Source of the DNA: Acidobacteriota bacterium
GTDB taxonomy: Bacteria; Acidobacteriota; Thermoanaerobaculia; Gp7-AA8
Length of the DNA stretch: 64,000 nt
Reading direction: 5' to 3'
NCBI GenBank assembly: GCA_003223645.1
Contig: QHVT01000007.1
Span: 106,531 to 170,530 of the forward strand
A program made the position numbers and the translations under genes. The notes under the pieces are model-generated. The model was not told the origin of the DNA, searched no databases, and saw only the letters and a list, made by a program, of their open reading frames with translations. This document shows, piece after piece, positions 5,378-56,950 of this stretch; position 1 is the first letter of the stretch; the number at the start of each line of letters is the position of its first letter.

Positions 5378-5396
5378 GGGGCGGGATCATATGCGC

Positions 5397-5507
5397 AGAG
5401 GCTCACAGGCTCAAAGGCGCATGGGCTCAAAGGCGCAGAGGCTCAAAGGCTCATGGGCGCATAGCGGTTTCTCTCTGAGCCTATGCGCCTGTGAGCCTAT
5501 GCGCCTG
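5397..5507. repeat. octamer tandem array (GGCKCANN x8) followed by inverted octamers (TGAGCCTA/TGCGCCTG x2 each) in divergent promoter region of STAS gene and response-regulator operon
   Basis: ggctcaca ggctcaaa ggcgcatg ggctcaaa ggcgcaga ggctcaaa ggctcatg ggcgcata ... tgagccta tgcgcctg tgagccta tgcgcctg. Confidence 0.8.
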
Positions 5508-5547
5508 TCTTCACAACTTCTTCACGAATCTGACTACCATCGATCAG

Positions 5548-21411: not shown

Positions 21412-23334
<1,923 letters not shown>

Positions 23335-23362: not shown

Positions 23363-23644
23363 GTGAAGCGGTCATCCAAACCTGTCGCGGCTTCCGCGGC
23401 TCGCCGCCGCAATGTGACCTTGACGATCTCCGAGGAGGTTTTCCGCCGCGCGCGGCATCTTGCGGTCGAGCGAGGTGTGTCCTTATCGAAGCTCTTGTCC
23501 GAGGAACTGGAAAGCCTGGCCGTCCGAGACGAACAGTACGAAACCTCGCGGAAGCGTCTCCTTGCCCGCATGAAGAAGGGATTTGACCTGGGCATTCGCG
23601 ACCGGCGGGTTTCCTGGTCACGTGACGATCTGCATGGGCGCTGA
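23363..23644 (+). CDS. ribbon-helix-helix (CopG/antitoxin-like) DNA-binding protein
   Basis: 93 aa; RRNVTLTISEEVFRRARHLAVERGVSLSKLLSEELESL = beta-strand + two helices of RHH fold; no obvious toxin partner. Confidence 0.45.
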   Translation: MKRSSKPVAASAARRRNVTLTISEEVFRRARHLAVERGVSLSKLLSEELESLAVRDEQYETSRKRLLARMKKGFDLGIRDRRVSWSRDDLHGR

Positions 23645-23897: not shown

Positions 23898-25064
23898 TCA
23901 CGACACTTTCTCGCTGATCGGCTCGTACGATATCAGGAGATCGCTAAGAATTTTTCTGGCTGCGTCCGCGTCGATTTTCTTGAGTTTCCGTTGCGCAGCT
24001 TCAGCCAGCACGACTCCGCAGATCTCGATGATCTGTCGCGGTAACCCCTGGCTCAGTTGATAGGCGTAATCGACATAATCATCAGTAAACGGGATGATCT
24101 CGTCCCTCTTTTGCCCATCTCGCGCTTCGGACATACGACTCACGATAAGCCGTCTAGCTTCGTCGGGAGCCAACTCTGCCGGCATTTCGACCACCTCGGA
24201 CGCCCGAATGCGTGCAAAGAAAGGGGTTATTCCGACTCCAGATTCCCCCCGGCCGCCTTCCATCATGACCTGCTGCCTCAGTCGATGCCAGTAGTCTGGA
24301 GTGGCGGCCATGAGAATCAACAATGTCGCAGCATTCGCGCCTTTTGAGAAGAAATCCACTTGCTGGTCCCAAAGATGCTTCAGGCTGTCGAGTACCGCCA
24401 CTCGTTGCGCCCTGGGAAGGGCGTCAACGTACTCGACTTCGTCGATGAACATCGCGATTGCTGTGACGCCGGCGGCATGTAACACCAGTTGAAGCGCCTG
24501 GATCACCGCAATGGCATCGTCCGACGTCCTAATTTGAAGCGTTTCGGCGATACCTGCCGCTTCAGCCTCTCTGCGAAGAATGCGGCTGCCGATCAACACT
24601 TTCCGAGCGACGGCCGCGGCATCAGGGCGCGTCAACGCAAGCAGCAAACCAACAAAGGGGCGAAGAGCGGACGGCCACCCAGCCTTAGGCGCCGCTACAT
24701 TTCGCAAGATCGGAACCAACTCGTTTTCGATATCCATGCCTCGGACGAAGAGGCGCAAAACGAGGCTGCGAGTAAAATCCCTCTTCTGTTCTGGGTCAAC
24801 GAGACGTATTGGCCCCAACCCCAACACTCGTGATTTCGTAGCTGGTTGAAGCGACCGGGCTAGCTGCCACAAGAGAAAGCTCTTGCCTGAGCCGTACGTT
24901 CCCAAGAGCACAGCATTTACTGGAGATCGCGACTGTTGCGCAAAGTTCACGATCTGCCGCAACCGCGTCCACTCAACATCGCGGCCAATTCGCTGTACGT
25001 CATAACGACCCAGCTCGAAAGGTTGCCCCTTAAGTCGATAGAGATCGAATGCTTTTGTAGACAT
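23898..25064 (-). CDS. P-loop NTPase (AAA/ORC-like ATPase), terminal gene of block 1
   Basis: Start MSTKAFDLYRLKG (ATG 25064, GGAGG 13 nt upstream; track ORF extends further 5' by overlap with next gene); Walker A LLGTYGSGKS, Walker B AMFIDEVEYVD. Confidence 0.6.
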   Translation of the reverse strand: MSTKAFDLYRLKGQPFELGRYDVQRIGRDVEWTRLRQIVNFAQQSRSPVNAVLLGTYGSGKSFLLWQLARSLQPATKSRVLGLGPIRLVDPEQKRDFTRSLVLRLFVRGMDIENELVPILRNVAAPKAGWPSALRPFVGLLLALTRPDAAAVARKVLIGSRILRREAEAAGIAETLQIRTSDDAIAVIQALQLVLHAAGVTAIAMFIDEVEYVDALPRAQRVAVLDSLKHLWDQQVDFFSKGANAATLLILMAATPDYWHRLRQQVMMEGGRGESGVGITPFFARIRASEVVEMPAELAPDEARRLIVSRMSEARDGQKRDEIIPFTDDYVDYAYQLSQGLPRQIIEICGVVLAEAAQRKLKKIDADAARKILSDLLISYEPISEKVS

Positions 25065-25080
25065 TGGCGAGGCCGCCTCC

Positions 25081-26019
25081 TTAGTGTTTACTAGTACTCT
25101 GCTTATCTGTAGTGGGCTTGAAGCGCACCGACACGAAGCCGGCGTACATATTTCCGAGCTGCAGGCCGTCGCGAGCAGGACCGCTAAATGGCGAGAATGA
25201 AACAAAATGCTCCGTAAGGAGCGTAGGTGCCTGCCGAATGATCTCGTCAAGTTGGGTATCAGATAGGAGAGTGCCGCAGTGTTGAAAGATGCGCCCAAGA
25301 TCGTCACGCAGCACGTTGATAGGCAGATACAGTTGCGTCCCAATCCTGCGAGTTGCCTTTGAATATGCTTCGAGAAGGGCTTCGCGCCGTGCTTGATTGG
25401 ATAGCGACGCAGCCGATAAGTTCGTACCTGGTGTTCTGAGAGCTTCAACGTGGCGACGATTAGCAGTCCAGATTACACCTCTATCCGTCGGGTTTTCCCT
25501 AATTACCCCAAAGAAGATCAAGTAACCGCCCCATTTCCCAAGCCGGTCAAGCGTACTGATAGCTTCGTCTCCAGTCAGGCCGAGCCTCTGCTCGATGAAT
25601 CGTCTCAACATAGTTTTGCGCCTCTCAGCCTTATGGGATGCCTCAGCAAGCCAGCCGACCAAACCGACGCGAGCCGCGTCCAGCTCGAGGAGATGCCGCG
25701 CCATGAGTTGACGTGCGTTCTCATCGTCTGCGGTTGCTATCGCTTCGGCGTAGCGTGTGACCTGTCCAGATCGAAGTGTGCCCTTAAAAAGCCGCAATTC
25801 GACAAGGCTCGGAAGCACGTACGCATTCAGGAGTGTTCTCGGCGGAATGTCTGGACGTAAGGCGACAAGTGCTGTACGGCGCCCTTCTGGCGTGCGGTGG
25901 TCCAGCAGTACGCGCAACGCCGGCAGAGTCAGGTCCGGTGGCATCTTCAAAACGGGGACCGTGAGAGGCGTCTTCGGCGGCCGACGTTTTGGCTTCGCTT
26001 TGCTTGCACTCTTCATGGC
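25081..26019 (-). CDS. hypothetical protein (block 1, gene 3)
   Basis: Start MKSASKAKPKRRPPK; no recognised motif; 7-nt overlap with upstream gene. Confidence 0.4.
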   Translation of the reverse strand, partial: AMKSASKAKPKRRPPKTPLTVPVLKMPPDLTLPALRVLLDHRTPEGRRTALVALRPDIPPRTLLNAYVLPSLVELRLFKGTLRSGQVTRYAEAIATADDENARQLMARHLLELDAARVGLVGWLAEASHKAERRKTMLRRFIEQRLGLTGDEAISTLDRLGKWGGYLIFFGVIRENPTDRGVIWTANRRHVEALRTPGTNLSAASLSNQARREALLEAYSKATRRIGTQLYLPINVLRDDLGRIFQHCGTLLSDTQLDEIIRQAPTLLTEHFVSFSPFSGPARDGLQLGNMYAGFVSVRFKPTTDKQSTSKH

Positions 26020-27152
26020 AGGCCTGCAGTTGAAGCTGCCGGAGAATGTGGCGCGGGCAATAACGGTGTGGTGCCCGGATAGCCACCCTCCCAGCAATGA
26101 TGACTATATGGGCAACGGCTACACCGCTGAAGGTCGCTGGGATGCGGTGGCACAGAGCCTGACCGAAGTATTGTCAGAGCGGAGTCTCGCTGGGTAATCC
26201 AGCGTTGGCGCTGTTGATCATCGGCCCGTATCCGATAAATTCGGTGCGACCGTAGTTTCCCTGCGGTCAAGTCGAGATCGATCGACAGTATGAATGCAGT
26301 GTTGATGCGCCGAGCCAAGGCAAATTCAGCAAAAATTGCATAACCAATCGCGACGCCCTCGTGAAACTGTTCATACGGGCCAGTCTTTAGGTCTCCGACT
26401 AACGTGACTGCGTAAAGGAAATCCGGGCACACACCGTTCCGTACGCCGAACACTCGGGCAGGGTACCTTTTGTTATCGAGGGTCACCCCAGTCTGAAGCC
26501 TTGTCAGGGCTGCCCGGGCCTCAGCCATCCAGTTGCTTGACGGCGTGAAATAGCCGAGCCCGAATCGGCCGCGGCGGCAGCGACGAAGATAGGCAATTAG
26601 AAGCTTCGTTTCGTGCCGGATTAAATCAACGATCGCCGCGAGGGTATTTGCAATCAGGTCTGCGCCACCCTCGCCGGCCATGCGCTCGGCGAAGTCATCA
26701 AGTGTGAGGTTTCGGAAATCAGGATGCTTTCCCGGGTATGTCCATTCAGAAAGAAGCCGTCGCCGTGCCGCGTCCTCCGCGGCAGTGATGATATTTGTTT
26801 CAAGATCCCTGAAGCTGACGGCTCGCCCGGTTCGGACGGACTTTTCGAATGCGTCATCCAGTTGGTCCATGCCGATCGTGTGAAGATCGACCAAAACCGG
26901 ATCGACAACTTTGCCGATTACTGAACGCGGCCATGAAGGTGTTTCGAGCTTGAGAACCTTTTCGAGGTAGATATCACGACCAGTCGGACAATATCTGGCC
27001 GACAAGCCTGTAATCGACACACCCTCGGTTCCGACCGCGGCCCGGATCTGCGATTGCTCGCCTGCATAACCGCGAAGATCCGGGGAAACTGGCAGCGGTC
27101 GATAATGCCTAAGCGTGCCGACAGCTCCGAGTTCGATTGCGACGCTAAACAT
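26013..27152 (-). CDS. putative PD-(D/E)xK nuclease of Cas4/RecB-like type with C-terminal C-x2-C-x5-C (Fe-S-like) cluster
   Basis: CPDFLYAVTLVGDLKTGPYEQF (D...D-L-K core), C-terminal CSRCPYSHHC plus N-terminal Cys (RYCPTG); 9 nt downstream of MTase stop. Confidence 0.45.
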   Translation of the reverse strand: MFSVAIELGAVGTLRHYRPLPVSPDLRGYAGEQSQIRAAVGTEGVSITGLSARYCPTGRDIYLEKVLKLETPSWPRSVIGKVVDPVLVDLHTIGMDQLDDAFEKSVRTGRAVSFRDLETNIITAAEDAARRRLLSEWTYPGKHPDFRNLTLDDFAERMAGEGGADLIANTLAAIVDLIRHETKLLIAYLRRCRRGRFGLGYFTPSSNWMAEARAALTRLQTGVTLDNKRYPARVFGVRNGVCPDFLYAVTLVGDLKTGPYEQFHEGVAIGYAIFAEFALARRINTAFILSIDLDLTAGKLRSHRIYRIRADDQQRQRWITQRDSALTILRSGSVPPHPSDLQRCSRCPYSHHCWEGGYPGTTPLLPAPHSPAASTAGLP

Positions 27153-27161
27153 CTAAGCCTT

Positions 27162-28628
27162 CTAGCTCACAGCCGGCGGCTTCCGGAGTACCAGAACGTG
27201 TTCGTGGGTGATAACGCCGGCGGTTGGATGCCGTTTTGTAAGTAAGCCACGTGACGGAATTTTGTTGCGAATACGCAGAGTTTGGGCGAAACCTAGCTTC
27301 GAGGCTAGTTCGGCGAGAATCGCCGCGTTATCAAGGAGGTGTCCCCGTACGTGATTGTTGCCGATGACAAAAACTACGTGCCCTCCTGGCTTAAGCGCCG
27401 CGTAGCAGTTGCTAACCACGACGTTCATGTCGCGGACATACTTGCTTATAATAGCGGCACGATACCGATCCTGCCGGAGTACTGACGTGATAGTTTCGTC
27501 GGCGCTCGGTGCGCCGGTCGGTTCCAACAGACTCGCCCATTCACGCTCAGGAACGCGCTCTGTGCCTATCTGCAGACGGTCGAGAGCAGACTCGTCCTGA
27601 CCATTGGCTGTATATCCAAGCACGAAAAGCTCTAGCCTGAGAGATCGAGTGTAGCGCTGAGCGTTAGCGTAGGGCGGAGAAGTAAGTATCAGGTCGATTC
27701 CGGAGACGGAGTCACCTGTTGGGTGGCCTAGGCGGCCAGCGCCGATGTAAGGGGCCGTGGCAAAAGTCCGTGCGTCCGCACCGTGGATGGTGTCGTTGGT
27801 CACGGGAATGGTTGTCGCATCGACCCAGGCCCGCAGTCGCGAAGCGTTGCTTCGGACCACGGTGTCGAGGATCGTCAAGACATCGGCGTCTTGGCGCTCT
27901 CGAAGATTTGCACGAAGCTCCCTTCGGACTGCAGCATCGCGGAATCTTCTCGGGTCGATTTTCACGGGAACGCTCACGCCAGGGTCGGCAAGAGCCACTT
28001 GCCTGACAACTGACGATGCGGCAACCAGGAAGAAGTCGCGGAGATTAGGGTCGCGTAAGCCTTCCATTGCGCGGAGCACGCGAGCGAGACGCCGCTCCAC
28101 CGATGGCGTAAACCAATGGCGTTTGTTTGGGAAATCTGGCAAGCCAAGTCGAGAAGTATCGGCGTTAAAACGGGCGACGATCCGCAGCCAAGAATCGAGA
28201 ATCGCGCGGCTTTCCAGCGGTGAAGTCTTCACCTTCGCGATGAGGCGCGCGAGCGGATTGATTTCGAGACCGACCGGGTGCATCGGGTGCACCGGGTGGA
28301 TCGGTGCCTCCACGAGAACGGTTCCACAGCCCGCAAAGGGGTCCAATAGCCGACCGAAAGGAACGGCGACGCCTCGCACCGCCAAGAAAAATAGTGGGAT
28401 ATACGGGGTCAGCCGACCAGGGTACCGGTGGAGCCGGTGAGTCATATGGTCGCCGCGCGCGGTCCAATCAGCACAATGGCGCCGGAAGTCGAAGTTTAGT
28501 GACCTTCCCGTTGCTTCGAAGCGGTCGCAGAGTCTACCGTACGCATCGGTCGCACGATCAGCGATCTCTTCTGGCTGTAAGCTCGAGCGAGTCATCCGAA
28601 ACGCCCCTTTTGAGGCTGAAGTCAGCAT
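27162..28628 (-). CDS. SAM-dependent amino-methyltransferase, probably DNA N6A/N4C MTase (motif I before motif IV)
   Basis: LLDPFAGCGTVLVEA (motif I) and LILTSPPYANAQRY (motif IV S-P-P-Y); paralog of 36580..37851; resemblance to RlmL/Trm11 m2G RNA MTases means DNA versus RNA target is unresolved. Confidence 0.6.
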   Translation of the reverse strand: MLTSASKGAFRMTRSSLQPEEIADRATDAYGRLCDRFEATGRSLNFDFRRHCADWTARGDHMTHRLHRYPGRLTPYIPLFFLAVRGVAVPFGRLLDPFAGCGTVLVEAPIHPVHPMHPVGLEINPLARLIAKVKTSPLESRAILDSWLRIVARFNADTSRLGLPDFPNKRHWFTPSVERRLARVLRAMEGLRDPNLRDFFLVAASSVVRQVALADPGVSVPVKIDPRRFRDAAVRRELRANLRERQDADVLTILDTVVRSNASRLRAWVDATTIPVTNDTIHGADARTFATAPYIGAGRLGHPTGDSVSGIDLILTSPPYANAQRYTRSLRLELFVLGYTANGQDESALDRLQIGTERVPEREWASLLEPTGAPSADETITSVLRQDRYRAAIISKYVRDMNVVVSNCYAALKPGGHVVFVIGNNHVRGHLLDNAAILAELASKLGFAQTLRIRNKIPSRGLLTKRHPTAGVITHEHVLVLRKPPAVS

Positions 28629-36483: not shown

Positions 36484-36657
36484 GATCGGCCGCGATCCGC
36501 TGTTCGACGTGATGACGATGTTAGCGCGCTTCGCGGAATGGGATGAACTGGCCGGTGCTTGCGTCACGAGCGATTTTGAGTGTCGGCATCGCGCGATGTG
36601 ATCGCGAGAGCGGCACGATACAATCCGCTCGCGCGATCTCTTTCTGCGCGACGAGCG

Positions 36658-37851
36658 ATGAAGAACGAAGCGATGACATCCGATCACCGGACCGTTGGAG
36701 CTTCTGGCTCCATGCCGCCGACCATGGCGAAAGTCAACGGGTTGCCACCATGGGCTGGCAGTGCGTGGCCCACCGAGAGTACGTTTCATCAACTGGCGCC
36801 CTACATCGGCAAGACGAAATCCACCATGGCTGCGGCGCTCATCCGAGAGTACGCGAAGCCTGGGGACGTTGTGTGCGACCCGTTTTCCGGCTGCGGCACT
36901 TTCGCGCTCGAGGCGTGGATAGCTGGGTGCCATGTAGTAGCGAATGATCTAAGCCCCTACGCGCACCTTCTGACGCGCGCGAAGCTCTTCCCCTATGAAT
37001 CTTCGGATGATGCACTTACAGATCTCGCCGCCGTCGCGAAATCGGTGGCACGTCGCCGCGCTCGGCCTGACCTCCGAACAGTTCCGCGTTGGATTCGTGA
37101 CTTCTTTCATCCCGACACACTGAAAGAAATTCTTGTGTGGACCGATGTCTTGCTGACGCAGGAGCGGTGGTTTTTGCTTGCCTGCCTCATGGGTATCCTT
37201 CATCATCAGCGACCGGGGTTTCTTTCTTTCCCCAGTAGTCACACCGTTCCTTACCTGCGCGTGAAGAAATTCCCGCGGCAACAATTTCCCAACCTCTATG
37301 CGTATCGTTCTATCCTTGATCGCCTGGAAGCGAAAGTCACGCGAGCGTTCAGGCGAGAGCCGAAGCTGAAGTTTGCGCTTCAGCGGCACTGTTTTTCAAC
37401 GCCGGCCCAGAAGCTGAAGCTCGCACGAAGCGTTGATCTAATCATCACCAGTCCGCCTTACATGCGTCAACTCGACTACGGGAGAGACAATCGCCTGCGA
37501 CTGTGGTTTCTGGGCTGCAAGGATTGGCATTCTCTCGATGACGTAGTATCGCCCGATCAGGAATCTTTTCTTGCGCTAATGGACCGATGCTTCGCGCGCT
37601 GGCATAAGTCCCTAAAGCCTCGCGGCCACTGTGTACTCGTGATCGGCGATCAATGCAGTCGTGAAGACCGAAGCGATCTACCCGATGCCGTCACTCAAAT
37701 TGCTCTGAAAGAGCGTCGCTTTTCTCTCGTTTCTTCGTACGCGGACACGATCCCAAACGAGCGGCGCGTTCGACGAGGAATCACCGGCAGCACCTCAGAG
37801 ACCGTATTGGTGCTTCGCCGAGCTCCGGAACGCGGAACGCGGCGAGCATGA
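36658..37851 (+). CDS. SAM-dependent amino-methyltransferase, paralog of 27162..28628 (alternative GTG start 36580)
   Basis: VVCDPFSGCGTFALEA (motif I), LIITSPPYMRQLDY (motif IV). Confidence 0.6.
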   Translation: MKNEAMTSDHRTVGASGSMPPTMAKVNGLPPWAGSAWPTESTFHQLAPYIGKTKSTMAAALIREYAKPGDVVCDPFSGCGTFALEAWIAGCHVVANDLSPYAHLLTRAKLFPYESSDDALTDLAAVAKSVARRRARPDLRTVPRWIRDFFHPDTLKEILVWTDVLLTQERWFLLACLMGILHHQRPGFLSFPSSHTVPYLRVKKFPRQQFPNLYAYRSILDRLEAKVTRAFRREPKLKFALQRHCFSTPAQKLKLARSVDLIITSPPYMRQLDYGRDNRLRLWFLGCKDWHSLDDVVSPDQESFLALMDRCFARWHKSLKPRGHCVLVIGDQCSREDRSDLPDAVTQIALKERRFSLVSSYADTIPNERRVRRGITGSTSETVLVLRRAPERGTRRA

Positions 37852-38263
37852 GATCTGGAAAACGGCGTGAGAAGTATGCAAACGCGACGAGCATTTCCCA
37901 GTCGAATGGATCGTGCGGCACGGTCGATGATGATACGTGGTGTTTCGAGCAGTGTGAAGGAAGCCATGGGTAGTGGCCGCGCGGCGAGGCTGTAACGGGA
38001 CGATTGCGGCACCGCGCGCGGCGTGGGCCGACGGCCAGCCGGCGTGATTGCAGACAGCCGCTGATTGCTTTCCTTGGGATATTCAGTATTCTTGATCTGC
38101 GGTCGCATGACCAACTCGAGCGATCTCACCGCGGAATGCGAACCCATGCGCGATGCGAGTTTGCCAAGGCGCTGACCGGCGGCATGCGCTTCTCACCGCG
38201 ACTGGCCGTGGTTGTTGTTCCGGGGCACTCGCTGAATAAACTTTTGGGACGGACACCTAGCGC

Positions 38264-41023
38264 ATGAATCGGCGTAACGACGACCAGTGGTGTCGAAGCT
38301 TGGCGGGCAAGATCGTTGGTAAATACAAGCTCCTTGAGTTTGTCGGTGCGGGACGCATCGGTTACGTATATCGCAGCCAACTCACTGACTTGGCCGAGTC
38401 AATGCCCGGAGTGAATCGCGCGGTTAAACTCGTGTTCGACGAGCTCCGACCTGGATGGGAAGTCGAAGTCAAGAAAGTGATGAGCCTCGAACTGATCGAG
38501 GGTGTGGTCCACTTCCACGAGTTAGGCACAGCGAGGATCGATCACAGTGGTGTCACTCACCTGTGCCAGTATACGGTATGGGACTATATTGCGCCGGGCG
38601 AAAATCTACATCAGTACTTAGCCCGTGTAGAGAGGGTTCCGGCTAGCTTTCTCATTGCACTTGTCGAGTCTGTCCTGCGTGTGTTACATGCGTGCGAAGC
38701 GCATGGCGTTGTCCGCCACGGTGATCTTCATGCCGGCAATATCCTGATCGGCGATGAGAAGACGGCACGGCTTGACGATTCTCTGCAACCGCGTGCGCCC
38801 GTTTACGTCTCCGATTTCGGTTATGGTGCCACCGGGGGGACTAAAACGCCGAAGGATGACTATGATGGGCTCGCGAACATCATCAACACGATGATTTCGC
38901 ATGTCGATCATGCGACGGCTACTTCGACTCACCGTCAGATCTTGCGAGCAATGCAGCGTGATCTCGGGAAGCTGCTTAGAGAGCGCGCGGGAGCCGAGCG
39001 CCGTACACCGCTTGAGATCCTTCGAGTTTTAGCCGACATCAGGAAGAGCGCTCAGACAAGCGAGGCTCGCGCGTCGCTTTCGCCAATCAGTTCGACGCGG
39101 CCTACCGGCCCAGTCCCCATTGACGCGCCCTCGGTCGGTCAATTTCAGGTGAGCGAAATGATCGGCGATCGCTGGGAGTGGTGGCAACGACTGTTTGTCC
39201 CCACCGTTCCGGCACGGTCGAAAATCCTCGCGCTCGACATTCCAACCGTCGTTACTGGGCCGCGTGGTTGTGGCAAGACGATGCTCTTCCGACGTCTTAG
39301 CGAGCGGCTGGTGGTGGAATGTGGTGAAGTGCCAGGCCTTCCGATTCAAAGTCGTTTTGTGGCGTTGTATGTGAACGCGAACGACTTCGCGGATGCGTTC
39401 GCCCATTTCCCGGACGCCCCATCATCGGACGACGAACAGCGACTGATTTGTTACGCGAACCTATGCATATTGGCAGATCTCCTTGCTGTACAGTCGGCCC
39501 GCGCCGGCCGGCTCAACGATCCCGCTCCAGACAGTTTGCTCGCTCTAGTGCAACGGTGGCTCATTCCGGATACGTACAACACGCTACTAGTCGGCGAAGA
39601 CCGTTTGGAGCGATACCGCGCTGTACTTGAGCAAATTAAGTGGACCTTCGGCGGTGGTGGCGGAAAGAATTCGTTCCCTGGCTATGCGGAGCTTTCACAG
39701 CATCGATGGCTGACGCGTTTGGTGCAGCAGGCCCGTGGTGCATGCGAATGGATTGGAGATCGTTCGGTGCTCCTCTTTGTGGATGATTTCTCCACGCCGC
39801 GTGTGTCTATTTCAATGCAGCGCGTGCTGAACCGCCTACTATTGCAGCGTTCACCCGACTTCCTGACAAAGGTTGCGACCGAAGCGTGGACAACGTTTGT
39901 CCCAGAAGACTCAACCGGCAAGAATCTCCAAGACGGAGACGACTATCAGCTCGTCGATATGGGCGAGGAATCGCTGTTCCTACCTGACGCAGAACGTCTC
40001 GCTTTTCTGGAGGCAGTGTTCTCGCGGCGTTTGCAGGTCGACCGCCGTGTGCCTGAAGGTGGGGCGTCACTTTCGACCTTCCTTGGACGTAACGGTCTGT
40101 CGAAAGCGGAGTTCGCGCGACGCCTGCGCGTGTCAGTTCACGACCAGGCAGAGTCCGAGCAACCAGCGGTCAGCGGAGTTTCTCAGAGACGAGGCCGTTC
40201 ACGCGGACGAGTTCGGTATTTTGGCGAGGACGTGTTTTCGAACCTGTGGTCTGGCGATACGCGAACGATGATTCAATTGGTCACCGATGTTATCGATCAA
40301 GCGTCGCAGCTGAAGGCGACGCCTGCGACTGACCCAGTGTTACGGCTTCCTGTCGATCCGTCACTTCAAGACCGAGCATTTCGGAATCGGGGCGGCGAAT
40401 GGCTGAATTCGCATACGCGAAATGAACCGACAGATCCTGAGAAGATGAAGAAGGAGCTCGCTCGCGTTCAGGCGGTTCGTCCCGGTTACAAACTGTGCGG
40501 AGAATACGGCGATCATCTAAAAGCGATCGTCGAGGCGTTCGCCGCGGCAGCGACGCAGTTGCTTCTGGGCCCAATGTACAAGATCACCGAGGGCAACACG
40601 ACCCGTGAAGTGCCGCGTATGGCGTTTCGGGTGGAGATCGTCGATGAGTTCCGGATCGACGGGTTAGCGCTGGAGATCTATCGCGACCTTATCCGGTATG
40701 GTCTTTTCATGCGCGACAACCGTGGCAAGAGCGTGCGAGGCACCTTTGTCCCACGCCTGTACCTTCGCCGGTTACTTCTGCCCTACTGCACTCTTGCACT
40801 ATCGAAACGAGACAGCGTCCCCCTTACGTCTGATTCGTTCACACAGCTTCTGTTATCTCCCGATGGTTTTAAATCGTCGTTCGTCGGTCGACGAGCTACC
40901 GGCGACCAAATGACGATGCCCTTTGTTGAACGCTACGAGGAAGAGATCGATCCCGAGTACGATGACTTGGATGACAGCGATTCGGTCGACGACACAGGAT
41001 CGGGACCTGACGATGATGAGTGA
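38264..41023 (+). CDS. fusion protein: N-terminal eukaryotic-like kinase-fold domain + central P-loop NTPase (STAND/NLR-like) + C-terminal acidic-tailed region
   Basis: Gly-rich loop FVGAGRIGYVYRS, VKLV lysine, Brenner motif VVRHGDLHAGNILIG (HGDxxxxN, lacks the canonical STK Lys), VSDFGYG (DFG); Walker A TGPRGCGKTM, Walker B LLFVDDF; terminal DDLDDSDSVDDTGSGPDDDE. Confidence 0.6.
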   Translation: MNRRNDDQWCRSLAGKIVGKYKLLEFVGAGRIGYVYRSQLTDLAESMPGVNRAVKLVFDELRPGWEVEVKKVMSLELIEGVVHFHELGTARIDHSGVTHLCQYTVWDYIAPGENLHQYLARVERVPASFLIALVESVLRVLHACEAHGVVRHGDLHAGNILIGDEKTARLDDSLQPRAPVYVSDFGYGATGGTKTPKDDYDGLANIINTMISHVDHATATSTHRQILRAMQRDLGKLLRERAGAERRTPLEILRVLADIRKSAQTSEARASLSPISSTRPTGPVPIDAPSVGQFQVSEMIGDRWEWWQRLFVPTVPARSKILALDIPTVVTGPRGCGKTMLFRRLSERLVVECGEVPGLPIQSRFVALYVNANDFADAFAHFPDAPSSDDEQRLICYANLCILADLLAVQSARAGRLNDPAPDSLLALVQRWLIPDTYNTLLVGEDRLERYRAVLEQIKWTFGGGGGKNSFPGYAELSQHRWLTRLVQQARGACEWIGDRSVLLFVDDFSTPRVSISMQRVLNRLLLQRSPDFLTKVATEAWTTFVPEDSTGKNLQDGDDYQLVDMGEESLFLPDAERLAFLEAVFSRRLQVDRRVPEGGASLSTFLGRNGLSKAEFARRLRVSVHDQAESEQPAVSGVSQRRGRSRGRVRYFGEDVFSNLWSGDTRTMIQLVTDVIDQASQLKATPATDPVLRLPVDPSLQDRAFRNRGGEWLNSHTRNEPTDPEKMKKELARVQAVRPGYKLCGEYGDHLKAIVEAFAAAATQLLLGPMYKITEGNTTREVPRMAFRVEIVDEFRIDGLALEIYRDLIRYGLFMRDNRGKSVRGTFVPRLYLRRLLLPYCTLALSKRDSVPLTSDSFTQLLLSPDGFKSSFVGRRATGDQMTMPFVERYEEEIDPEYDDLDDSDSVDDTGSGPDDDE

Positions 41024-42152
41024 CACAATGCAGCCGCTTTCCGCGGAACATGCTGAGAGCCGAGGCATTGTCTTCGGTCGACTGCCAGTGATGTCGCGTT
41101 GCGACACCCTGACGCTTCACGGCCGCGACCTTATAATCCATGCTCCCGGTTTTGAGGATCGCACGATGGCGATCGCCGGGCTGATCACTGACTCGGCGGC
41201 AGGGCGCGGTATTCTGCTCGATTATCGGCCACTCAATCTCACAAACCGGCTCACGGACGTGCGCGCCGTACTCTCCGGTAAGGGAGTCAGTATCGATGAT
41301 ACCGATATTCTGATCTACGACCGATTCAGCCCGGGAGATTTCGAGAGGCGCTTGGCTGAACGGCTCGCGGTTTGCGATGCCGAGCGCGTGTTCGTTGATA
41401 TTTCGAGTATGTCGAAGTTGGCAATATTGCTTGTTCTGGATGTGTGTCGACGCCTCGGTTTACACATCGTCGTGCTCTATGCTGAGGCTGAACGATACCG
41501 CCCGACGAAAGAAGAGTTTGAGCAGGCTCGACTAGCGAATGAGATTCATCAACCAAGCCTGCAAGTCTTCACTGGTGTGCATGGTGTGGTGAGGGTTGAC
41601 TCTCTGGCCAGCGTGGCGATGCAGGGACAGCCTACGGCGGCATTGGTCTTCATGTCTTTCAACGATGTACTAACACAGGTTCTGCTGAACACCGTTTTCC
41701 CCGGTCGCCTCTTTTTGATTAACGGTCGACCGCCAGTGCATTCATGGCGAGAGGCTGCGACGGCGTGGATCCATGCTCAGGTTCGCTCGGAATGGGACGA
41801 AGACAACCCCCAGAGTTCGGAGTCCGATAGTTTGTTGCCGCTGCGAACCACATCGACCTTGGACTACCGTGAGTCCGTGCAACTACTCGTGGAGCTTTAT
41901 TGGAGCCTATCCGCGAATCACCGCATCTTACTGGCCCCTTCAGGAAGCAAGATGCAGGCTGTGGCTTGTCATGTCGTGAAATCTCTGCATCCCGACATAC
42001 ACATCGAATATCCGTCGCCAGAGGGTTTCGTGCCGGAGTACAGCACTGGTGTGGCGGCCGTCTGGTCGCTGGATCTGGGACGATGGCCCGATACGTTGGC
42101 GTCGATCGCGGAAGCTGAACGGCAAACATACCTAGAGATTCCCCCATGCTAG
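41012..42152 (+). CDS. hypothetical protein (block 2, gene 3), translationally coupled on both sides
   Basis: ~380 aa from MSDTMQPLSAEH; no motif recognised by eye. Confidence 0.45.
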
Positions 42153-43183
42153 GCAAGGGTTCATCACGTGGACGGACCCCCGGCACGAAGCGCGCGCGCG
42201 CGACGCGTGGTGAGCGTACAGGCCAACCTAACGGTGCGAAAGAATCGACCGACACTGACCGGGATTCTCCATCAGCTCTCACACGGCCGAACCAACCCGC
42301 AATAGATGTCATTTTAGGGCGGCCTTTTCGCGTGCTCGATGACGGTTTCGCTCGCGTAATTGATTACATGGGCGATGATGCCGCTATCGTTCAGGCGGCC
42401 CGAGTGTCATATGGTCGGGGTACGAAGCGCGTGCACGACGACCGGGGGTTGATCAGGTATCTAATGCGACACTGGCACACGACGCCGTTCGAGATGTGCG
42501 AACTCAAGCTTCACGTGCGAGTCCCGATGGACACCTGGCGGCAGTGGATCAGGCACCGGACGGCGAATGTGAATGAGTACTCGACACGGTATTCTGTTGC
42601 GATTGACGCGGCGCAACGCACAGCACCGGATGCTTGGCGACTGCAAGCACCGGGAAACCGCCAAGGAAGTGCGGGCCGCGTAGCGTCTGCCGTTGGTCAA
42701 CGCCTAACGGAGTCGGAGCGACGTGTACAGAAGCAATCGCGCAGCGTGTACGAGGAGCGGCTGGCGGCTGGCGTTGCACGTGAGCAGGCACGGAAGGATC
42801 TTCCGCTATCCACGTACACGGAAGCATACTGGAAAGTGGATTTGCATAACCTGTTGCATTTTCTCCGGCTCCGTATGGATCCCAATGCGCAGGAGGAAAT
42901 CCGTGCATACGCGAACGTGATCGCGGAGGAGATCGTCGCGAAATGGGTTCCACTCACATGGGAAGCGTTTCTAGACTATCGGCTCAACGCGTTGCAGTTG
43001 TCGAGCATCGCGGCGGCGATAGTCAATGCGCTGTCTGTTCCGGATCGAGAGCTTGCGTGCCGGATCGCGTCCGAACATGGGCTCCTTCAATCAGATAGTG
43101 AAGGGCACCTTCGGCCGAATCGAGAGAGAACTGAGCTTGAGGCGACACTGTTAAAGCTCGGCATTGACTTGCCATGGCGGTAA
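42146..43183 (+). CDS. thyX: flavin-dependent thymidylate synthase ThyX with ~55-aa Arg/Lys-rich N-terminal extension
   Basis: ThyX signature RHRTANVNEYSTRY (RHR-x7-S-x-RY); N-terminal MLGKGSSRGRTPGTKRARATRGERTGQ... tail; no alternative in-frame start before the catalytic core. Confidence 0.75.
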   Translation: MLGKGSSRGRTPGTKRARATRGERTGQPNGAKESTDTDRDSPSALTRPNQPAIDVILGRPFRVLDDGFARVIDYMGDDAAIVQAARVSYGRGTKRVHDDRGLIRYLMRHWHTTPFEMCELKLHVRVPMDTWRQWIRHRTANVNEYSTRYSVAIDAAQRTAPDAWRLQAPGNRQGSAGRVASAVGQRLTESERRVQKQSRSVYEERLAAGVAREQARKDLPLSTYTEAYWKVDLHNLLHFLRLRMDPNAQEEIRAYANVIAEEIVAKWVPLTWEAFLDYRLNALQLSSIAAAIVNALSVPDRELACRIASEHGLLQSDSEGHLRPNRERTELEATLLKLGIDLPWR

Positions 43184-55810: not shown

Positions 55811-56749
55811 ATGCTCGAACGAATCCGGAACGCGGTGCGTGCGAGCGCAGATGAGAAACCTCTTCCGCGCAAGACGACCGAGGTGCGCTTCGACGGCCTC
55901 GGCCTCCAGGATCCGATCGAGCGCGCGCAGACGCACGAGCCCGCGCTGATCCTCCTCGAGGGCGACTTTCCGGGACAGGTGTTTCGCCTGCGGCAGGGAC
56001 GGCAGATCATCGGACGCCGACCGGAGTGCGACATCCGCCTGCGCGAGCGCGCGGTCAGCGGCATTCACGCGGAGGTCGTGCGTATGCGCGACACCGTCAC
56101 GATCAACGACCTCGCCAGCACCAACGGCACGCTCGTCAACGGCATGCGCATCCGCCATCCGGTTCCGCTGGTCGGCGGCAATCTGCTGAAGGTCGGCAAC
56201 TGCGTGTTCAAGTACGTCGACTCGCTGCTCGACGTCGAGTTCACCGAGGCGCTGCATTCGCGCGGCATCACCGACCAGCTCACCGGCGCTTACAACAAGG
56301 CCTACATCGTCGCGCGGCTCGCGTTTCTGATCGACACGGCCTCGGACACGAAGCCGATGAGTTTGATCACGTTCGACTTCGACAACTTCAAACAGGTGAA
56401 CGATCAGTTCGGACACGCGGCCGGCGACTACGTGCTGCGCGCGACGTCGTCGCTGATCGTCTCGCAGTTCGTGCGGCCGCAGGACGTGTTCGCGCGGACG
56501 GGCGGCGAAGAGTTCGTGATCGTGCTGCCGGAGACGCCGCTCGACGTCGCGACGAAAGTGGCGGAGCGCATCCGGCAGATGTTCGAAGAGAAGACGTTCG
56601 AGTTCGAGGGACAGGAGATCCGGCTCACGTCTTCGTTCGGCGTCTGCAGCCTGACGAGCGCGGTGGAACCGCCGGAGGCGCTGCTCGAGCGCGTCGACGA
56701 TCTGCTGTACCGCTCCAAGCGCGAAGGCCGCAATCGCGTGACGGCGTAG
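55811..56749 (+). CDS. FHA-domain-containing diguanylate cyclase (FHA + GGDEF)
   Basis: FHA core (QIIGRRPECDIRLRERAVSGIHAEV...TNGTLVNG); GGDEF domain with RTGGEEF active site and RxxD-like region. Confidence 0.8.
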   Translation: MLERIRNAVRASADEKPLPRKTTEVRFDGLGLQDPIERAQTHEPALILLEGDFPGQVFRLRQGRQIIGRRPECDIRLRERAVSGIHAEVVRMRDTVTINDLASTNGTLVNGMRIRHPVPLVGGNLLKVGNCVFKYVDSLLDVEFTEALHSRGITDQLTGAYNKAYIVARLAFLIDTASDTKPMSLITFDFDNFKQVNDQFGHAAGDYVLRATSSLIVSQFVRPQDVFARTGGEEFVIVLPETPLDVATKVAERIRQMFEEKTFEFEGQEIRLTSSFGVCSLTSAVEPPEALLERVDDLLYRSKREGRNRVTA

Positions 56750-56950
56750 CGCCTTCCTCGGTCACGCAGTTGCGCGGTCACTCGGTTGCGCGGGGAAGCA
56801 GCGCCGCGCAACCGAGCGACTACGCAACCGAGCAACCGGGTGAGGGCGTAGCGCCTTCCTCGGTTACGCAGTTGCGCGGTCACTCGGTTGCGCGGGGAAG
56901 CAGCGCCGGGCAACTGAGCGACTGCGCAACCGAGCAACCGGGTGAGGGCG
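56747..56950. repeat. 2 x 102-bp tandem direct repeat, each unit with internal dyads
   Basis: Unit agcgccttcctcggtcacgcagttgcgcggtcactcggttgcgcggggaagcagcgccgcgcaaccgagcgactacgcaaccgagcaaccgggtgagggcgt repeated with few mismatches; contains ctcggttgcgcgg...ccgcgcaaccgag 13-bp inverted repeat; fills the whole gap between convergent genes. Confidence 0.85.

Follow-up and report, generated by a model that had tools for sequence, protein, structure and literature searches.

What do four tightly packed genes that encode a DNA methylase, a Cas4-like nuclease, a protein without recognizable motifs and an ATPase do together? The question is raised by positions 23898-28628 of a 64,000-nucleotide stretch of contig QHVT01000007.1, assigned to an Acidobacteriota bacterium (assembly GCA_003223645.1), the whole of which we refer to as the window. 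An earlier note, made from the letters of the window, had read this block as a probable restriction-modification (R-M) or defence module outside the type I-IV layouts. Our analysis supports that reading because of the gene content of the block and the known defence systems that recurrently adjoin its relatives. Judging from sequence comparisons and structural models, we consider it fairly likely that the four components make up a methylation-based defence system that was acquired horizontally, is R-M-like and comes close to BREX and MANTIS in its logic.

All four open reading frames (ORFs) lie on the minus strand in a tight operon-like arrangement and were found where the earlier note had placed them, save for one start codon. 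In the order of transcription they are predicted to encode a DNA amino-methyltransferase (27162..28628; 488 aa, with LLDPFAGCGT and TSPPY), a PD-(D/E)xK nuclease of the Cas4/Csa1/Dna2 type (26013..27152; 379 aa, with PDF...VGDLK and the C-x2-C-x5-C cluster CSRCPYSHHC), a system-specific third protein that the note had left as unknown (25081..26016; 311 aa, no known motifs) and an AAA+ ATPase of the BrxC/BrxD (ORC/Cdc6-like) superfamily (23898..25064; 388 aa, with GTYGSGKS and FIDEVE). The motifs that had been quoted for the methylase, the nuclease and the ATPase are all present in the translations. The third gene starts at an ATG at 26016 and not at 26019, so that the 7-nt overlap described earlier shrinks to a 4-nt ATGA overlap with the nuclease stop; the reported 9-16-nt spacings stand, the remaining two junctions being gaps of 9 nt and 16 nt. 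Independent gene calls on identical metagenome contigs likewise give 311 aa for the third protein, and an AAGGAGG ribosome-binding site precedes the ATPase gene. With the ATGA overlap and the two short gaps, the four genes are predicted to be translationally coupled.

The base composition of the block is clearly foreign to the host. Its G+C content is 0.568 compared with 0.634 in the remainder of the window, and G+C at third codon positions (GC3) is 0.56-0.61 in the four genes versus 0.79-0.87 in the nearby genes for ParE, an M3 peptidase, an aldo-keto reductase and a desaturase, which bears out the A/T-richer codon usage remarked on earlier.

The same four genes recur elsewhere as a unit. The order methylase-nuclease-third protein-ATPase is found in 13/13 independent loci from metagenomes or metagenome-assembled genomes (MAGs), which are all the loci long enough to judge, the window locus not being counted; so fixed an order takes the arrangement far beyond chance. 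The loci fall in two deep branches, and their hosts include Acidobacteriota-like bacteria, Anaerolineae, Dehalococcoidia and others, the Anaerolineae and Dehalococcoidia MAG loci belonging to the deep branch, in which the third protein is 17-26% and the ATPase 25-29% identical to those of the window. Flanking genes differ in every independent context, leaving the four genes as the only ones common between loci. By these comparisons the four genes form one conserved mobile cassette, which moves horizontally between lineages as a unit. The cassette is rare and patchily distributed. Its nuclease, third-protein and ATPase families comprise 29, 27 and 30 clusters, respectively, among 5.8 billion proteins, with many members of the three on the same contigs, and a profile search with the third protein returned 67 matches among 1.84 billion representatives, among them members of the deep branch with only 17-23% identity to the window protein.

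The cassette is repeatedly found next to known defence genes. HmaB and HmaC together with an AIPR gene adjoin it at loci L007 and L008 (PADLOC matches at L008: HmaB 4e-88, HmaC 9e-95). Another neighbourhood contains a CBASS cyclase (9e-127) with a HORMA protein, plus an IS21 element, and elsewhere PD-T7-1 (5e-138) adjoins the cassette. Other flanks hold type I R-M genes together with one for a HEPN protein, toxin-antitoxin pairs, or a TraG-like coupling protein. At locus L011 the cassette has a G+C content of 0.60 between flanks of 0.74-0.75. This locus and L012 (1-6039 in both) have the cassette and the downstream flank in common and differ in their upstream gene sets. The upstream genes include those for 1419-, 525-, 337- and 578-aa proteins with no Pfam match on record, and a PADLOC scan of five L011/L012 upstream proteins gave no matches; the region could be a variable hotspot with further unknown genes. 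Two other loci carry irregular copies. At L100 (1250-1444) the ATPase match after the winged-helix gene (the third gene, see below) spans only 65 aa even though ~2 kb follows, and this copy may be truncated or degraded. At the Dehalococcoidia locus L017 (5536-7017) the annotated methylase is 399 aa long and lacks motif I; since tblastn similarity to the full-length methylase reaches further upstream, to 5536, the start may have been mis-called or a frameshift may be present.

At the window locus itself, we compared 27 related genomes whose ParE is 77-95% identical to that of the window. None of the 27 has the cassette beside parE within the flank available (at most 10 kb, with several contigs of only 2-5 kb), so the block is not core synteny, an explanation that the earlier note had kept in view. 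Between parE and the cassette lies a small ribbon-helix-helix/CcdA-like ORF (23363-23644, plus strand) that matches DUF6364 at 1.5e-4, with no evident toxin to pair with it. In a relative without the cassette (L035) a copy of this ORF with 65% identity stands downstream of parE, and we therefore assign this ORF to the host backbone and the left border of the cassette to the interval between 23644 and 23898. Synteny around parE is too weakly conserved in the relatives to define an empty site; in the closest genome (L020, ParE 95% identical) an aldo-keto reductase homologue directly follows parE, and the M3 peptidase is missing too. Searches for mobile-element borders near the block found no tRNA, no integrase and no convincing flanking direct or inverted repeats. 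The taxonomic labels at this locus conflict: NCBI sources of identical or near-identical cassette proteins are Gemmatimonadaceae or Gemmatimonadota MAGs, whereas the adjacent ParE (window 21439-23334) has its closest counterpart, at 95% identity, in a MAG of the Thermoanaerobaculia (Acidobacteriota), and the 27 best ParE matches among species representatives all come from Acidobacteriota.

Among the four proteins the methylase is the most readily classified. Membership in PF01555 was defined by a score above the gathering threshold together with a (D/N/S)PP(Y/F) motif and an AdoMet-binding FxGxG motif; the methylase has both motifs and scores 28.7 bits (1.6e-6; gathering cut-off 26.7). PADLOC MTase_II matches at 5.2e-38, the best of the type II DNA methylase models. 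Motif I (DPFAGCGT) is located at about residue 96 and motif IV (SPPY) at 317-320, with ~200 residues between them, and SPPY is invariant in 10 aligned methylases, deep branch included. A ten-sequence methylase profile matches the beta-class DNA methylase TTHA0409 (PDB 2zie) at 1.1e-11 with the segments in permuted order, which places motif I N-terminally and motif IV C-terminally in this enzyme; a PDB search with the single sequence gave no useful match. On sequence grounds the methylase is thus classed as a circularly permuted PF01555-type DNA amino-methyltransferase, its product probably being N4-methylcytosine or N6-methyladenine. SPPY is more typical of N4-cytosine methylases. An rRNA/tRNA m2G methyltransferase of the RlmL/Trm11 family, which had been named as the candidate to check, was rejected: PF01170 scores 15.7 bits (cut-off 22.3; E 0.012) over 22 residues only and TIGR01177 12.5 bits (cut-off 316.55), both below cut-off, while the DNA-methylase models match.

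The nuclease has what defines the Cas4 family, namely a RecB-like fold, a D...(D/E)xK site and one N-terminal plus three C-terminal cysteines (CX2CX5C), in agreement with its first description as a Cas4-like iron-sulphur (Fe-S) PD-(D/E)xK nuclease. In the family alignment, where the note had asked for the cluster ligands to be sought, the D..DxK catalytic motif and the four cysteines are invariant. The model places an inserted bundle of three long helices at about residues 74-194. PDB searches with the nuclease, by single sequence or by profile, gave no useful match. These features point to a catalytically intact Fe-S enzyme of the Cas4/Csa1/Dna2 fold, with the four cysteines as predicted cluster ligands.

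The third protein is predicted to consist of three winged-helix-like domains and resembles the recognition domains of the type IIS enzymes FokI, BpuJI, N.BspD6I and PaqCI. BpuJI and FokI are also structural neighbours of BrxA (PMC9240713), and we defined the BrxA/type IIS fold by at least two winged-helix lobes superposing on BrxA, BpuJI and FokI D1-D2. As modelled, the third protein is a putative DNA-recognition or adaptor subunit.

The ATPase matches PF10923 (BrxC_BrxD) at 1.2e-9 and 38.1 bits (cut-off 22.2), PADLOC BrxD at 5.5e-7, and also AAA_16 and AAA_22. The BrxD equivalog NF033438 scores 26.9 bits against a cut-off of 350 and covers residues 168-260 only. PDB searches gave no useful match with the single sequence and P-loop-level matches only with the profile. 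Walker A GxYGxGK (G55-K61), Walker B D208/E209/E211 and the arginines R285, R310 and R315 are invariant in 9 ATPases from both branches. The P-loop ATPase proposed earlier is thereby confirmed, and its sequence identifies it as an apparently intact ORC/Cdc6-type AAA+ of the BrxC/BrxD superfamily. The predicted folds of the cassette proteins agree with the assigned roles.

How might these parts work together? In the mechanism we propose, the methylase would mark a short motif on host DNA, and a complex of the winged-helix protein with the ATPase would form on DNA at the expense of ATP. This complex could itself recognize unmethylated sites, or it could leave site reading to the methylase, which it would load and activate in the way of MtsA/MtsB of MANTIS; in either case it would then license the nuclease. 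Cas4/Dna2-type nucleases work on single-stranded DNA or DNA ends; for this reason we propose that target DNA is first distorted or opened by the ATPase complex, upon which the nuclease would cut unmodified invading DNA. As to the site reader, the type IIS-like fold speaks for the winged-helix protein. The precedent of MANTIS, in which an ORC/Cdc6-clade AAA+ and a small co-factor load and activate the methylase and trigger the nuclease (bioRxiv 10.64898/2026.09.23.753747), favours the methylase. A Cas4-family nuclease is described in PMC12094033 as a defence partner of prokaryotic Argonaute (pAgo).

Four observations weigh against a defence system of this kind. The immediate neighbours of the block in the window are housekeeping, not defence, genes. 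A scan for promoters and terminators around the block recognized none, with counts at the shuffle level. The helix RTLLNAYVLPSL, which occupies the position of the recognition helix in the first winged-helix domain, is nearly invariant in the close branch, a pattern more in keeping with a constant partner than with a sequence specificity that varies. Finally, no variable target-recognition region is evident in the methylase, since its sequences, at 55-65% identity, are better conserved than those of the other three proteins.

The genes could alternatively serve to maintain or replicate a cryptic mobile element, with an Orc1/Cdc6-like initiator, a winged-helix origin binder, a Cas4-like nuclease such as many archaeal viruses and plasmids carry, and an orphan methylase. 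This we regard as unlikely: the cassette is not accompanied by genes for an integrase, a replicase, partition or structural proteins, only the four genes being common to the loci, and the cassette has no match in 72,556 plasmids, 50,697 phages or the viral contigs of IMG/VR. Searches revealed neither flanking repeats nor a tRNA, and the cassette is chromosomal, lying among housekeeping genes on contigs of up to 457 kb. A DNA repair or recombination module, in which the AAA+ and a DNA-binding adaptor load a Dna2/AddB-like end-processing nuclease and methylation marks strand or age, is quite unlikely. Repair genes are normally inherited vertically and have host composition, whereas the cassette differs from nearby genes in GC3 (0.56-0.61 versus 0.79-0.87), is patchy, rare, horizontally transferred and absent at this site in relatives; in addition, it is repeatedly adjacent to defence systems and has an obligatorily linked methylase of its own.

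The block might also combine, by mere adjacency, two systems independent of each other, a type II R-M pair (methylase plus nuclease) beside a winged-helix plus ATPase module. PADLOC does place the methylase under type II models, and PD-(D/E)xK nucleases are common among type II restriction enzymes. Yet all four genes keep one fixed order in 13/13 loci over deep divergence, the nuclease stop overlaps the winged-helix start, and the nuclease, winged-helix and ATPase families are matched in size and share contigs. The same strict linkage to the AAA+ and the winged-helix protein argues against a simple two-component type II system, in which the nuclease would cleave by itself at or near the site of the methylase, needing neither ATP nor accessory subunits. 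To our knowledge, no Cas4/Dna2-type Fe-S nuclease acts as a stand-alone sequence-specific restriction enzyme, a further point against two systems, and we hold this explanation to be very unlikely. Hardly credible is the reading suggested by public annotation, that the nuclease is Csa1, an enzyme of CRISPR adaptation. PF06023 (Csa1) is indeed its best Pfam match, and NCBI and JGI annotate it as 'CRISPR-associated protein Cas4'. Conversely, it scores 56.7 bits against TIGR01896, the equivalog for Csa1 of CRISPR-Cas subtype I-A (cut-off 103.35), and is also below the Cas4 equivalog cut-off; a search of the 64-kb window for CRISPR-like arrays found none, and no cas1, cas2, other cas or effector genes occur in 10 annotated cassette contexts; and the genes that accompany it are invariably those for the methylase, the winged-helix protein and the ATPase. 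The 'CRISPR-associated Cas4' annotations of this gene are misleading.

The methylation-based defence system that we prefer can be taken one step further, to a proposal on which we are evenly divided: that the cassette is the founding example of an undescribed immune family, in which a Cas4/Dna2-fold Fe-S nuclease would be licensed against unmethylated DNA by two proteins, a FokI/BrxA-like triple winged helix that stands alone and a small AAA+ of the ORC/Cdc6 type. Such a family would be free of helicase and of PglZ and would link a CRISPR-adaptation nuclease family to R-M-like immunity. No PADLOC v2, NCBIfam or Pfam model covers the cassette as a system, and we found no description of it in the literature on Csa1 and solo Cas4, BrxD or methylase-linked defence; the BREX-diversity paper does not mention Cas4. 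If functional, the cassette would add a compact design of ~4.7 kb to R-M, BREX, DISARM, MADS and MANTIS, and would be the first R-M-like system we are aware of with an Fe-S effector of the Cas4/Csa1 family. As a small, tractable system it would also bear on what the numerous 'solo Cas4' genes that lie apart from CRISPR loci do, and on a question raised by the BREX and MANTIS work, namely how ORC/Cdc6-type AAA+ proteins and BrxA-like binders couple recognition, methylation and restriction.

Elsewhere in the window, a second low-GC island occupies positions 36580-43183 on the plus strand (GC 0.56-0.59, GC3 0.60-0.62). It encodes a methylase of the same permuted architecture (DPFSGCGT and TSPPY) that is 25% identical to the cassette methylase, a 919-aa protein with an N-terminal kinase-like region and an ORC-CDC6-like ATPase (PF24389 5.5e-25; PADLOC CARF_STK_AAA 1.7e-18), a 409-aa protein that matches PADLOC CARF6 models (1.3e-8), and a thyX gene whose codon usage is foreign in the same way. 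The island may be a second methylase-linked defence module. The window also contains a 102-nt tandem repeat at 56730-56950 (2.2 copies, 94% matches) and a cluster of short 8-, 16- and 24-nt repeats at 5393-5508.

We finally compared the cassette with known systems. A protective methylase paired with a PD-(D/E)xK nuclease is reminiscent of type IIS, III and I R-M, and the ATP dependence recalls types I and III. In type IIS enzymes, however, the recognition module is fused to the nuclease, while in the cassette the recognition-like module is a separate protein. Its ORC/Cdc6-type AAA+ and its Fe-S nuclease of the Cas4/Dna2 type also set the cassette apart from these R-M systems. None of the four proteins matches the type I components HsdM, HsdS (PF01420) or HsdR, and they include neither a helicase domain nor a Mod-type methylase as expected for type III (Mod plus Res). 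With Cas4/Csa1 and Dna2/AddB/AdnAB the nuclease shares the RecB-like fold, the D...D/ExK site and the four-cysteine Fe-S signature; it differs from them in its lack of a CRISPR context, in being about 90-180 residues longer and in its three-helix insert. The pAgo-associated Cas4-family protein ACE1 has an Argonaute as its partner, whereas the cassette nuclease is partnered by the methylase, the winged-helix protein and the ATPase, and no cassette locus has an Argonaute. MADS is likewise a multi-gene defence system with methylase and ATPase, and PADLOC mad2 (6e-4, 16.7 bits) and mad8 (2e-3, 15.5 bits) give matches that are short and at the level of motifs. MADS has eight genes, including a kinase and several ATPases, compared with four genes, no kinase and no other mad genes in the cassette, which places the cassette outside it.

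Two further parallels are BREX and MANTIS. With BREX the cassette shares the BrxC_BrxD ATPase domain only: it lacks PglZ, BrxB, BrxL and a PglX-type methylase, and it has a PD-(D/E)xK nuclease, which classical BREX does not. PglZ, PglX and BrxC models of PADLOC, Pfam and NCBIfam match none of the four proteins, and the PglZ, BrxC and PglX core of BREX is thus absent. MANTIS (formerly Gao_RL, or DUF499-centred BREX-related type 2) resembles the cassette in plan, with four genes for an ORC/Cdc6-clade AAA+, a small accessory protein, a DNA amino-methyltransferase and a nuclease effector. No proteins are orthologous between the two. DUF499, DUF1156, Hma and helicase models (PADLOC, Pfam) match none of the four cassette proteins, which sets the cassette apart from MANTIS, Gao_RL and Hma, and at L007 and L008 a Hma-type DUF1156/DUF499 system adjoins the cassette as a separate unit. 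Each role is filled differently: the MANTIS ATPase is DUF499 and that of the cassette a 388-aa BrxD-like protein; the methylase is DUF1156 in one and of the permuted PF01555 type in the other; a PLD-SF2 helicase effector in MANTIS contrasts with an Fe-S Cas4/Dna2-fold nuclease without helicase; and where MANTIS has the small, specific MtsB as its accessory, the cassette has a triple winged-helix protein.

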